A DNA stretch of 63,910 nt, counting the filler, from Octopus bimaculoides (lineage: Eukaryota): the NCBI RefSeq assembly GCF_001194135.2. It is 8 parts of 8 records of this genome, joined end to end, with 100 filler letters (N's around TTAATTAATTAA, not from the genome) between each part and the next. Parts side by side here need not be neighbours in the genome. Positions count along the whole stretch, not along the records: positions 6,574 to 19,168 come from NC_068985.1; positions 19,269 to 35,460 come from NC_068990.1; positions 35,561 to 49,635 come from NC_068993.1; positions 49,736 to 53,175 come from NC_069006.1; positions 53,276 to 60,285 come from NW_026327044.1; positions 60,386 to 62,767 come from NC_068994.1; 2 more parts are not named here. The stretch is one strand, 5' to 3'. Every line of letters begins with the position of its first letter. Within the stretch, counting starts at the first letter, position 1. Shown here piece after piece: positions 11,293 to 60,764 of the stretch. The notes under the pieces are model-generated. The model searched no databases. It was given only the letters and a program-made list of their open reading frames with translations, and was not told the DNA's origin. The translations under genes and the position numbers were made by a program.

Positions 11293-11365
11293 TGCCTCGA
11301 TAACTGAATAGATGGCGGAGCAAGTTTCCACCCCGGCATCCGAAACTCGGAGTTTTATTATGGCA
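11293..11365 (+). ncRNA. Type I hammerhead ribozyme remnant (core CUGAA[GA] deleted by 2 nt)
   Basis: Helix I TGCC-TC-GATAA / TTATT-AT-GGCA; helix II GATG/CATC; GAAA; helix III ACTC-G-GAGT; GUU triplet ending 11354. Confidence 0.65.
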
Positions 11366-11416
11366 GCCGAATAATTGTCACATATTATATTACAGATAAA
11401 CACATACAAACACGCG

Positions 11417-11462
<46 letters not shown>

Positions 11463-11564
11463 AACGTATATTTTCCATTATTGTCTTCATTGTGGGTCTG
11501 CCGTTCCAGGATTCTAACTTGTAATTTGAGATAGATTTAACTAATATTTCTGGCAAAACCAGTA

Positions 11565-11676
11565 GTCACGTGACGGTTATAGAACTAAATATGTAAAAGG
11601 TTTTTTGTTATTGTTTATCTAAGGTTAACCCTGTTTAAGTAGATCAACAGCTTATGACCTTTGACCTATGACACTT
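11565..11676. promoter_or_regulatory. Candidate regulatory cluster: palindromic E-box plus DR1 nuclear-receptor repeat
   Basis: GTCACGTGAC at 11565-11574; TGACCT-T-TGACCT-A-TGACAC from 11655; motif match only. Confidence 0.35.
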
Positions 11677-11678
11677 AC

Positions 11679-11915
11679 CGAAAGCTTCGCCACCTCACTT
11701 CCAGAATTTATGTCGTTTGACCAACGGAAGCTTGCATGAATGATGATGAGGAGAGAGAGGAGGGAGTGTGGGTAGGTGACAGCGAAGGGGTAGAAGAGGA
11801 GGCAGATAAGGGAAGAGGGAGAGGAGCAAGTTTTGTGGCAGCAGAAGGGAATGGGCATGATAATAATGATGATGACGATGATGATGATGGTTATGATGTA
11901 TAAAGAGGAATGCAT
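11679..11915 (-). CDS. Possible coding exon of an unidentified host gene (hydrophobic N-terminal segment)
   Basis: Open frame from ATG to a consensus donor CG|GTAAGT at 11679/11678 in non-repeat DNA; no recognisable homology and partly low-complexity. Confidence 0.2.
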
Positions 11916-12237
11916 TATTTTTGGAATCCTTCAGTTTTGAATAATGTTGGGTTTGATTCAACATAAATTTAACTATGATTTCTAACACTACATACAAGCA
12001 GGAAGCGACTTCCTTGTTGGTTTCGTCTTTACAGTTCAGATGGAATTGTCTTAAACCATTTTTCGATCTTATTTCTCTCAGGAATATATTCGGTAGTTGC
12101 ATTTTTATTTTCAAAATAATCCACAAATATGAGACGTTAGGTTTCAAGTGAACAAAAGGCAAATATTTAAATGGTAAAATTAAATATTGCTTTGTGTGAT
12201 AATGGGATTAGAGCCTAATTTTAAATCCATTAATTAA

Positions 12238-12453
12238 CCGCTTGGCACCCAGATTATTCAAATGCAATACTTATTTATTCACATTATTTTGAATTAATCA
12301 GACATTATCTCTTAGCTTTGAGATTTTGATAACGTCATTGCTTAAGGTTAGAATGATATTGTAGGGCAAGTGTGAGAGGCCAGATCTGGCCAATTAGAGC
12401 ACAAGACAAGAGGAATATTTAAGCCACACATAAATGATTTGAGTGCCACGGGG
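12238..12453. mobile_element. piggyBac-like MITE
   Basis: TTAA on both sides (12234-12237, 12454-12457); imperfect 13-bp TIRs starting CC (10/13 match); related partial copy in opposite orientation at about 42591-42745. Confidence 0.6.
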
Positions 12454-13417
12454 TTAAATAAACAATTTTCATAGAATTAAATTTAGAAGTGTCAGTATTA
12501 AAAGGAGTAAACAGTGCAAGAGAAAGCTTCTGTGGTACAGAGATTGCATTTGCTGTCTCATTCCTTATATTTGATAACCTTAGCTATAATGCCTTAGTCT
12601 ATATGACAGCTATGCACACTAGTGTCTTTAAGATTCCATACCGCATTCGATAAAGATTAGATTGAAAGAGATATAACTTTTACTATGAAAGATTATTGGT
12701 GTTTGTTCTTTGTGACATAAGTATATTACATAAAATTGAAAGAGAAGAAAGAAAATGACTCGGTAAAGCAAGGGACAAAATTGTACCAGATGGCTTAGGA
12801 ACATTTAAGTGAGGATTGGAAACAGTAAAAGCATTCGACCATACAAAAACTTCCTGAATGCATTGCGACCAACCCATGCAAAAATGATGACGACGACGAC
12901 GACGACAACGATGATGATGATGATGATTATGAAAACAGCTTGCCAATTATGAAATGGTGTGCTGTCTTAAAAGTAAACAAGGATTAAATTAACTAGAATT
13001 GGGATCTGGAAAAATGCCTGTGAAACCAAAGACTCTAAGAATAGATTGTCATTTAGCATATTTGGAAGATTTTGGTTGGATCGTTTTATCAAGTGTCAGG
13101 TTGGAAAACGATTTTTGGCAACATGTCTCATAGAATGGTTTTATATCTGGTGTGTGGAACTAGTTTGTTCTGGATGAGAGAGATACAATAATGAAAGTAT
13201 AATCAAATGATCTGAAACAACAAAAACAATCCGGATAATTCTTGAGAATTTCGTTTCTATATTTGAGAATGTATATCGCTTTACTTTCTTGGTTTTATTT
13301 ATTACGTTTACTTATTTCTTTCTTTTTTGTATTAATTTTAGATGTGTCTGATGGCTGATGTCTGTGTGAGGAACACTGAGAGTGTGCTATGATACTGCGG
13401 ACGACAAGAGGAGAAGA

Positions 13418-13455
<38 letters not shown>

Positions 13456-57500: not shown

Positions 57501-57596
57501 CTTTTATTACCTTTTTCTCCGAATACTCAGCCAACTCGGCCTCTCTTTCAAACGAAATATTTCAAGAAACAAAAGACAAGACTCACAGCAAGAACG

Positions 57597-57653
<57 letters not shown>

Positions 57654-58260
57654 TTTTCGGAATATGGCGTCCATCTGGCTGAACTATCATAAGTACCGAA
57701 CATCAGAATGAAATCATCCGGAAAATAATGTTAAACACTACACAAAAAAACATGTCATAAACGTATGTAAGACACATATGTATATATNNNNNNNNNNNNN
57801 NNNNNNNNNNNNNNNNNNNNNNNNNNNNNNNNNNNNNNNNNNNNNNNNNNNNNNNNNNNNNNNNNNNNNNNNNNNNNNNNNNNNNNNNNNNNNNNNNNNN
57901 NNNNNNNNNNNNNNNNNNNNNNNNNNNNNNNNNNNNNNNNNNNNNNNNNNNNNNNNNNNNNNNNNNNNNNNNNNNNNNNNNNNNNNNNNNNNNNNNNNNN
58001 NNNNNNNNNNNNNNNNNNNNNNNNNNNNNNNNNNNNNNNNNNNNNNNNNNNNNNNNNNNNNNNNNNNNNNNNNNNNNNNNNNNNNNNNNNNNNNNNNNNN
58101 NNNNNNNNNNNNNNNNNNNNNNNNNNNNNNNNNNNNNNNNNNNNNNNNNNNNNNNNNNNNNNNNNNNNNNNNNNNNNNNNCATTATATAAATATATATAT
58201 ATATATATACGTGTGTGTGTGTCATTGAACAGACTCGTACATACATAAATATATACACAG

Positions 58261-58325
58261 GAAGAGAGTATGGCAAAGAGAAGGAAAGCTGTGGAAGACA
58301 AACAAAACGAAAACCTGAGACAGCG
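58261..58325 (+). CDS. Possible short coding exon, unidentified gene
   Basis: CACAG|GAAGAG...CAGCG|GTATGT; open frame EESMAKRRKAVEDKQNENLRQR; weak pyrimidine tract, no homology recognised. Confidence 0.25.
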
Positions 58326-58929
58326 GTATGTTGGTACAATCACAGATTATTGAAACGGCAAGTGGATAATTTCCTTGGAGAGGAAGCAAGCACACATACA
58401 CACATACGTACAAACATGCATGTATACTGTTTTCTTTTGAATTCGGACGACAAAACAATATGTGGATCCTCTGTACGCTTTATGACATTCGCTCCAAATT
58501 TGCATGAAATTATGTTTTAAAGTTCATTAGGGATTAGTNNNNNNNNNNNNNNNNNNNNNNNNNNNNNNNNNNNNNNNNNNNNNNNNNNNNNNNNNNNNNN
58601 NNNNNNNNNNNNNNNNNNNNNNNNNNNNNNNNNNNNNNNNNNNNNNNNNNNNNNNNNNNNNNNNNNNNNNNNNNNNNNNNNNNNNNNNNNNNNNNNNNNN
58701 NNNNNNNNNNNNNNNNNNNNNNNNNNNNNNNNNNNNNNNNNNNNNNNNNNNNNNNNNNNNNNNNNNNNNNNNNNNNNNNNNNNNNNNNNNNNNNNNNNNN
58801 NNNNNNNNNNNNNNNNNNNNNNNNNNNNNNNGAGCGCAATGCCTAACCACTGGGCCATTGCGCCTCCACACACTCACGCACCTATAAATATATATCTTTA
58901 TATATATATATATGCATATATATATATAT

Positions 58930-59062
58930 ATAGCGGTTCGGCAAAAAGAGACCGATAGAATAAGTACTAGGCTTACAACGAATAAGTCCTGGGGTCGATT
59001 TGATTCGACTAAAGGCGGTGCTCCAGCATGGCCGCAGTCAAATGACTGAAACAAGTAAAAGA
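58930..59062 (+). mobile_element. SINE family B 3' end, CpG intact
   Basis: Near-identical to 2457-2594. Confidence 0.9.
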
Positions 59063-60454
59063 GTATATATATATATATATATAGTGTTTGAAAAAAATTG
59101 TAGACAATATATATATATAAAGATAGATATATATACACACACACATATAAGTACACACATACGTACGTATGTATGTGTATATGTATATATGCTACAGAAG
59201 CACAAATGAAAACTTATCAGCTAATACTATCAGCCGTACTAAAACCACTGAACCACTGTCGCCTCTCCCCGTTCGCTATTTGCAATCATCATACATCTTG
59301 ATTTCCTTTTGGACCTGTCCGCGTGAATAGCAAAACCCGAGTGTGTCCATAGCAGTTTTTGATGGAGATCTCTTGTTACTTATGAACGGCCTCTCCACCA
59401 CCACAACTACCACCTCACCATCCATTATCCTACCATTAAACACCGCCACCATAAACATATAATTTCAGGACCGCCATCGCCTCCGCCATCGCCTGCGCCT
59501 GCGCCATATCACCATTGCCCCATAATCGATGGCCGAGGCGTTATAATAGATCTCCTGCCATAACTCCGTGCTTTAGACTCCCACCACCCACCTTACTATC
59601 TCATTCTTTTTCTATATGTTTGTCTATCTCTCGGGCTTACACTCTCTCTCTCTCTCTCCCTCCCATTCTCCCTCCTTTCCTTTCTGTTTCCCTCTGTCCC
59701 TCTCTCTCCCTCTTTGTCTCTTTCTCTTCTCCTCTCTCTCCCTGACACCGATTTGGGTATGTTGATGAGTGCTTAGCTACAGGTATTCGGTCCTCACGTT
59801 GAAGTTCCGAGTTCGAATTTCACCCAGGACGATTTTTCGCTTTCATTCTTTCGGGGGTCGATGAAATAAGAACATCTTGGGGCCTAATTGTGTTTCGAGG
59901 TCAAAACATACACACAAACGTTCATACATAGGGCTGAAGACCAAGCAGTAAGTACAGTCGAGTTGCTAGGAGGAGGATGGGAAAAAGAAATAGGAGGAAT
60001 ACGTAAGGTTTGTACAACGAACATGAAATAATGATGAGTTACAATAAGAACGGAACACGTTGTGGGTGTTTATTGAGCGAAAGTGGGTGTCTGTTCGTAT
60101 ACAGAGAGAGTGTGTGAAGATACGTGAGTTAATGATTAAGGTATGGGATTCATAATCATAAGGTTGTAGTTTTGATTGCTCCAATGGGTGACGCATTGTG
60201 TTCTTGAGCAAAACCTTTCATTTCACATTGCTTCATTTCACATACACATATATACACACACGCACACACACACACACACACACACNNNNNNNNNNNNNNN
60301 NNNNNNNNNNNNNNNNNNNNNNNNNNNNNTTAATTAATTAANNNNNNNNNNNNNNNNNNNNNNNNNNNNNNNNNNNNNNNNNNNNTGTGTGTGTGTGTGT
60401 GTGTATACATACGGGAGGCGGCTACGTTCTGTATGTATATATACATATACATAC

Positions 60455-60615
60455 AGGATGCCGCTACGTTCTGAGTTCAAATTCCGCCGAGGTCGACTTT
60501 ACCTTTCATCCTTTCGGGGGTCAATGAAATAAGTACCAGTTACGCACCGGTGTCGATGTGATTGACTAGCTCCCTTCCCCGCAAAATTTTTAAGGCCTTG
60601 TGCATAGAGTAGAAA
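60455..60615 (+). mobile_element. SINE family A, 5'-truncated
   Basis: GTTCTGAGTTCAAATTCCGCCGAGGTCGACTTTACCTTTCATCCTTTCGGGG; another fragment at about 59752-59885. Confidence 0.85.
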
Positions 60616-60725
60616 TAATTATTTATATACACATATGCCACGTTGGACTTCATTTTCTCTCTGTTTATTTTCTTTTATTCCTTTCCGCTGTTTTTTTCAT
60701 TTTCTCTCTGTTTATTTTCTTTTAT

Positions 60726-60764
60726 TCCTTTCTGCTGAAGAGCGTAGGCTCGAAACATAAAGGA
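60726..60764 (+). ncRNA. Minimal hammerhead with CUGCUGA core variant
   Basis: UCCUU-U-CUGCUGA-A-GAGC-GUAG-GCUC-GAAA-C-AUA|AAGGA; AUA is probably CpG-decayed GUA. Confidence 0.6.

Follow-up and report, generated by a model that had tools for sequence, protein, structure and literature searches.

The window analysed here is a stretch of 63,910 nucleotides (58,114 called bases, the rest filler) from the genome of Octopus bimaculoides (assembly GCF_001194135.2), in which microsatellites and short interspersed repeats abound. It holds eleven motifs that resemble the type I hammerhead ribozyme, a form known from Penelope-like elements (PLEs) and animal retrozymes. An earlier note on this DNA had reported ten of them. 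Hammerhead-like sequence is present at all ten sites, offset by at most about 40 bases from where it was first placed, and the eleventh motif lies at 56905-56947. The six families claimed in the same note are borne out when nine site regions are compared with the window by blastn. They are referred to as A (11304), B (14955, the half motif 14834-14855, and 56911), C (30075 and 54567), D (36506 and 60732), E (46217), and F (47412 and 48569). The ten motifs reported earlier make up eight insertions and the eleven make up nine, the pairs 14830/14950 and 47368/48565 each being a single inverted insertion. None of the motifs is strictly intact, and the one at 14830 consists of a 3′ half only. Families B and D differ from the other four in carrying U at core position 6 (U6), where hammerheads almost always have A. 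Core positions follow the hammerhead numbering, and the features are as follows.

11299-11359, plus strand: family A hammerhead remnant; core CUGAAUA (U at position 8), helix III ACUC-G-GAGU
14765-14855, minus strand: family B inverted copy, its hammerhead reduced to the 3′ half (14834-14855); ends in (TAC)n(TAA)n
14856-15025, plus strand: family B more-than-unit copy; unit of ~155 nt, 23-nt internal gap, ends in (TAT)n
14949-14992, plus strand: family B hammerhead; position 3 is G and position 6 is U, helix III reads AUAU, cleavage is predicted after 14986
56835-57010, plus strand: third family B copy, missed earlier; hammerhead at 56905-56947 with core CCGUUGA (U at position 6), ends in (TAT)n
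30035-30080, minus strand: family C hammerhead; core CUGAUGA intact, a mismatch at the base of helix II, helix III palindrome AACGUU
54526-54572, minus strand: second family C hammerhead; core CUGAAGA, extra A after GAAA, 83% alike over 111 nt
36501-36537, plus strand: decayed family D hammerhead; core CUGAUGA (A at position 6), GAAG for GAAA, helix II broken
60630-60870, plus strand: family D element; ~230 nt between TA runs, 49-nt local duplication
60727-60764, plus strand: family D hammerhead; C at position 6, helix II GAGC/GCUC, predicted cut after 60759
46212-46258, plus strand: best-preserved hammerhead of the window (family E); core CUGAAGA, 6-bp helix II, 10-nt palindrome AUAUGCAUAU, one helix I mismatch
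47329-47890, minus strand: family F left arm; 5′-truncated Hydra-clade PLE with C-terminal endonuclease end, 3′ untranslated region and hammerhead, near a (TA)n run
47648-47890, minus strand: family F endonuclease end; two stops
47368-47416, minus strand: family F left hammerhead; A at position 8, GACA in place of GAAA
47884-48658, plus strand: family F right arm; copy of the left arm in inverted orientation (81% over 283 nt), with a repeat inserted at ~47972-48385 that we take to be of the short interspersed nuclear element (SINE) type
48565-48618, plus strand: family F right hammerhead; core CUGAAGA and GAAA intact, CpG-type changes break helix I

The type I layout, a three-helix junction with its ends in helix I and an NUH cleavage site, is kept with mismatches in ten of the eleven motifs, the other being the half motif. 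A strict descriptor (perfect core, unbroken helices) finds no site in the window. Both CUGANGA and GAAA are kept at four of ten sites, namely 46217, 30075, 48569, and 54567, the last with one extra A. The core CUGANGA given earlier is right for families A, C, E, and F, with U8 in the forward copy of A and G8 in its inverted copy, and wrong for B and D, whose core is CUGUNGA. We scored the sites with a tolerant scheme of our own, made after they had been seen; the shuffle test is therefore a generous one. The top four scores are those of 46217 (20.1), 11304 (15.8), 30075 (15.0), and 54567 (11.6). They are followed by two hits not reported earlier, and then by 14955 (7.2), 60732 (7.0), 47412 (6.0), and 36506 (4.9); 48569 and the half motif at 14830 lie outside this scoring. 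Three sites reach 15, a score seen in none of 100 local dinucleotide shuffles. Four sites reach 11 (shuffle mean 0.10, maximum 2) and eight reach 7, six of them reported earlier (shuffle mean 1.48, maximum 5). The reversed window gave one site at score 11. The sites 14830, 36506, 47412, and 48569 do not rise above chance on their own; what supports them is their homology to sister copies. Three further tolerant hits (49758, 21107, and 4036) were discounted, as their scores fall inside the shuffle range and two have helices of simple repeat. In folding energy, two of ten folded sites stand out (46217, z −4.1; 60732, z −2.2). No hammerhead family appears among the 150 of 179 Rfam matches listed, and two motif scans of metagenome contigs returned no loci, as expected for animal repeats.

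The family state of B and D was read from sequencing data. One DNA run, as contigs, and three raw RNA runs were aligned on 14770-15026 for B and on 60620-60900 for D at 80% likeness or more. For B, 548 contigs aligned, and the summed depth peaks at 231,058 against ~40-70 for single contigs. For D, 6,723 contigs aligned with a peak of 3.27 million against ~50 on the flank. Summed depth is no copy number by the tool's own caveat; as a rough guide it suggests thousands of copies of B and tens of thousands of D. Several damaged positions of the window copies are repaired in the reads. The C at position 3 of B is restored in 9,100 of 10,028 DNA depth (91%) and in 32 of 32 RNA reads. Position 6 of B (14958, T) is not among the variants listed; U6 is found in both window copies and in each of the five loose-end or joint strings that extend over the core, with position 7 variable. 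Helix II of B appears to covary across the two copies and the read strings, reading GGCA/UGCC at 14955, GGUA/UACC at 56911, and GACA/UGUC in reads, where 14977 changes from C to T in 95% of depth. The majority state of D is likewise U6, at 1,733,988 of 1,956,554 DNA depth (89%) and at 932/1105, 972/1107, and 697/784 in the three RNA runs (84-89%). The C at position 6 of the 60732 copy was accordingly rejected as the family state. Position 7 of D is G in 17.5%, and the remaining core positions are not among the variants listed. In relatives of the 60732 copy, the helix III palindrome is restored (G) in 78% and a helix I wobble becomes a full pair (A) in 97%. The two window copies of D are 76% alike over 74 nt. 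High copy number, paired helices, a palindromic helix III, and U6 are shared by B and D.

DNA joints in B reach back 149-160 bases, one contig of 172 bases is longer than a unit, and the 56911 copy contains one 9-mer twice at a spacing of 156 bases. These data make B a unit of ~155 nt with more-than-unit copies beside (TAT)n. By this layout B resembles a pseudo-long-terminal-repeat (pseudo-LTR)-only element or a retrozyme. No array with two hammerheads was seen among the B contigs.

Family F provides the direct link to PLEs. Its left arm encodes an 81-residue peptide with two stops. The best protein match of a peptide from the window is an Octopus vulgaris protein (71% identity). By way of the O. 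vulgaris homologue of the F peptide, a full reverse transcriptase-endonuclease protein of 705 residues (P0003) was found, to which the F peptide is 44% identical over 72 amino acids (E 2e-17, pairwise). P0003 bears reverse transcriptase motifs, RWK, DKT, a CxC-linker (CxCX5C), and CxxC...E...N...CxH, the last four being marks of the Hydra clade according to Craig et al. (PMC8557442). The endonuclease end of F itself has CxxC, CxH, and both the E and the N, while the reverse transcriptase part (RWK, DKT, and linker) was lost by truncation. Pfam gave no match to this end, nor did it identify P0001, P0002, or P0003 as proteins of PLEs. The right arm of F begins at the truncation point of the left arm, and close to the left end there is a (TA)n run, so that F is an inverted, 5′-truncated copy at a (TA)n target; inverted, 5′-truncated copies have been described for PLEs. 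From its coding end and inverted layout, F can be identified as the truncated end of a Hydra-clade PLE. An assignment to the Neptune clade was dropped, as the motif set of the homologue is that of the Hydra clade. Adjoining the right arm, 48657-48768 holds a 42-bp inverted repeat (86% alike).

The 5′ part of family A is repeated in inverted orientation, forming a 74-nt hairpin (11249-11322), and its helix III, ACUC-G-GAGU, is the form of published Hydra-clade PLE hammerheads; a 4-bp helix III with a one-base loop is common to A and F. A mariner transposase remnant at 10986-11256 (Pfam Transposase_1, E 4e-12) is interrupted where family A and the hairpin start. Upstream of motif E, CCAAT-like and TATA-like words were seen by eye at 46130-46200, perhaps a pseudo-LTR promoter, and directly behind the motif lies a decayed mariner-type element (46257-47060; Mos1 helix-turn-helix, E 2e-4, under the curated cut-off). 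Within 800 bases upstream of A, C, D, and E, no PLE coding frame was recognised in the sense frames. The PLE or retrozyme origin proposed in the earlier note is supported directly for F. For B and D the support comes from their copy number and the structure of the unit, and for A, C, and E what speaks for a putative PLE link is likeness. Its description of the population as mostly non-autonomous and invisible to annotation of open reading frames fits B and D and fails for F, a truncated coding element.

RNA reads were inspected for signs of self-cleavage. D is covered by 1371, 1398, and 938 reads in the three runs (81-117 per million) and B by 65, 45, and 27 (2-5 per million), with equal read directions; 23 D reads and no B reads are 99% alike to the window copies. 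Of the D reads, 96% continue into unlike sequence, and depth across the predicted cut barely falls, from 1137 before to 1037 after (run X21). A pile-up of read ends occurs nowhere on B or D in the three runs, which is a weak test of self-cleavage, and no back-joint at the predicted cut was found in RNA reads from these standard libraries, which may lose short circles. B and D are carried passively inside longer, mostly uncut RNAs. Since the reads cross the predicted cut without a pile-up of ends, the cutting of host RNA and the circular RNAs suggested in the earlier note are unsupported. The geometry of the window points the same way: the two close pairs lie on opposite strands, so no hammerhead dimer is possible within one RNA, and same-strand family partners are 24 to 42 kb apart. 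The copies in the window are likely inactive fossils.

The composition of one part of the window is unusual. CpG observed/expected is 0.08-0.36 at 36001-52000 and 0.62-1.15 elsewhere; four motifs lie inside this region, and no exon was identified there. CpG loss is a mark of methylation, and 36001-52000 is likely a methylated gene body.

Two explanations would deny the motifs a history as mobile ribozymes or give them a present role. The motifs could be chance matches in AT-rich, repeat-rich DNA, a view to which the four sites below shuffle level on their own and the two unreported hits among the top eight lend something; it is extremely improbable, as the top three sites exceed every shuffle, family homology is centred on the motifs, and reads repair damaged positions. 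Chance is refuted in this way for B, C, D, E, and F, with A the least certain. We also find it very unlikely that the window motifs themselves cut host pre-mRNAs or release RNAs, even with four of them in a CpG-poor region of 36-52 kb that resembles a methylated gene body, a nearly intact motif at 46217, and D-family sequence in 81-117 RNA reads per million. No motif is strictly intact, the closest same-strand family partner is 24 kb off, read depth hardly drops at the cut, and no host exon was recognised in the window.

The motifs are, with good probability, decayed minimal type I hammerheads of six families, in which F is the truncated end of a Hydra-clade PLE, the other five are likely PLE ends or non-coding sequences mobilised by PLEs, and U6 is predicted to slow self-cleavage in B and D. 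In the parent elements, the helix III palindrome would bring two copies together and cleavage would fall after NUH, probably aided by a protein of the element. The reverse transcriptase and GIY-YIG endonuclease of PLEs would copy such RNAs into repeats rich in TA or TAA, and the resulting copies would be truncated, inverted, or in partial tandem; the inverted and partial-tandem layouts and microsatellite targets seen here are PLE-like. B and D would be non-coding elements copied by PLE protein, their fold retained as a slow, protein-assisted ribozyme and docking site. Host transcripts containing a copy would stay mostly uncut under U6-slowed cutting, which would make insertions cheap and allow very high copy numbers. 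Published work bears on several of these steps. PLE hammerheads have a palindromic helix III and cut weakly, as dimers, and for one PLE the ribozyme needs the element's protein while cutting is not required for insertion in vitro. The change A6C lowers hammerhead activity in Mg2+ and permits good cutting in Mn2+ (PMC3088659, PMC7151607), changes within the CUGA turn reduce activity, and in a full mutational scan core changes other than a 3-8 swap gave low activity. From these data, U6 is likely to slow the self-cleavage of B and D.

Two other readings of U6 were weighed. In one, hammerheads with U6 in B and D have full activity because the dimer fold, protein, or some metal besides Mg2+ compensates, and they make circles of the retrozyme type. 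Two families unrelated in their helices do share U6 while keeping C3, G5, G8, A9, GAAA, and NUH; the ~155-nt unit of B is circularly permuted, with back-joints in DNA; A6C retains good activity in Mn2+; and molluscs are known to have retrozyme circles of 170-400 nt. We regard full activity as unlikely, given the lack of a read-end pile-up or RNA joint at the cut, the scarcity of B in RNA, the lack of a contig with two tandem hammerheads, and the mostly solo state of D, whose RNA reads run on into unlike sequence. In the other, U6 is a neutral founder mutation: the master copies from which B and D spread already had a dead ribozyme, whose fold hitchhiked. This would agree with the dispensability of cutting for PLE insertion in vitro, with the spread of Naiad PLEs without canonical hammerheads, and with the A6 of the 36506 copy of D. 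It is less readily reconciled with the same position-6 change in two unrelated families that keep the other core positions, and with the apparent covariation of helix II within B after U6 was fixed; we consider a neutral origin improbable too, if a little less so than full activity.

Several points weigh against the preferred reading of slowed, PLE-derived hammerheads. Uncut reads are survivors, and cut RNA may be lost. Position 4 of B varies (C at 56912, A in one read group), which is a sign of plain decay. The counts take records at least 80% alike, so that older A6 copies such as 36506 (76%, A6) are under-counted. The DNA evidence comes from one run (X1), the RNA evidence from one study, and the read alignment covers two of the six families. 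No activity figure for A6U was found in the literature, and none of the families A to E could be linked to a reverse transcriptase or endonuclease in the window.

U6 is apparently an undescribed core variant; dense and diverse minimal hammerheads are already known, with more than 6,000 in 16 families reported from coral and ~9,000 from Xenopus. No report of a natural A6U or CUGUNGA was found in the core-variant literature and the parts of two supplements covered; the largest survey (Lunse et al. 2017) lies beyond that coverage, and its alignments may hold variants. The B and D motifs were not found in the PMC8557442 supplement, where line breaks could hide a match. We put forward, tentatively and as a proposal that could well fail, that CUGUNGA is the dominant hammerhead subtype of the octopus genome, occurring in at least two unrelated families and selected as a tuned-down or a protein- or metal-switched ribozyme. 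If so, surveys based on CUGANGA would all have missed it, including those that call some PLE clades hammerhead-free. The Naiad_Obim consensus in the PMC8557442 supplement has CTGTTGA, a 6-bp stem, and GAAA near its 3′ end. This site may be a remnant of a U6-type or other ribozyme in a clade reported without canonical hammerheads. PLE hammerheads cut poorly, and their cutting is dispensable for insertion in vitro; with two very successful families that keep the fold and alter the core, nature provides a way to test whether catalysis or shape is under selection. Should U6 prove functional, the number of hammerheads in animal genomes has been underestimated. Many hammerheads in one window are in themselves ordinary for a PLE-rich invertebrate.

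The window also contains other repeats. A decayed non-LTR retrotransposon lies at 31389-33780, its reverse transcriptase internally deleted (Pfam RVT_1, E 4e-8) and its tail (TAA)n, and a fragment at ~34830-35135 resembles its C-terminal end. A short inverted-repeat element at 16030-16620, with related copies near 19720-20220 (by eye), is possibly a miniature DNA transposon. In several gaps the same 12-base word stands between runs of N, which is assembly filler and not biology.

The families were finally compared with known systems. The hammerheads of PLE pseudo-LTRs (Cervera and de la Pena 2014, PMC4209133) share with those described here the type I layout, a short helix I, an extra base after A9, a palindromic helix III, many families per genome, and mostly solo copies with some close opposite-strand pairs. 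They differ in their consensus CUGANGA and in a U3-A8 core variant; here B and D have U6 and all copies are damaged. Hydra-clade PLEs, among them Hydra-1_Obim (Craig et al. 2021, PMC8557442), share with F the CxxC...E...N...CxH end, a hammerhead whose helix III has 4 bp and a loop of one base, a truncated copy in inverted orientation, and a (TA)n run nearby, and the helix III of Hydra-2_Amil is the same as that of family A. File S2 of that work lists Hydra-clade hammerheads, one of them from O. bimaculoides, with A6 in 26 of 26 Hydra-clade rows. The F hammerhead is unlike that of Hydra-1_Obim in sequence, and F is therefore another family. Penelope-like families are listed in a repeat annotation of O. 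vulgaris from 2026, whose main text does not contain the word hammerhead. Animal non-LTR retrozymes (Cervera and de la Pena 2020, PMC7229834; Li, Clavereau and Pollet 2026, 10.64898/2026.07.22.740005) resemble B in being non-coding, in having one type I hammerhead per ~155 nt, and in their more-than-unit copies; they differ in that B shows neither a two-hammerhead array nor an abundant circle and has U6 in its core, and in that D is mostly solo. The A6C hammerhead of phage Bcep176 (PMC3088659, PMC7151607) likewise has a natural change at position 6 in an otherwise complete hammerhead, but it is a single phage sequence with C, whereas here U is the majority state in two high-copy animal families.

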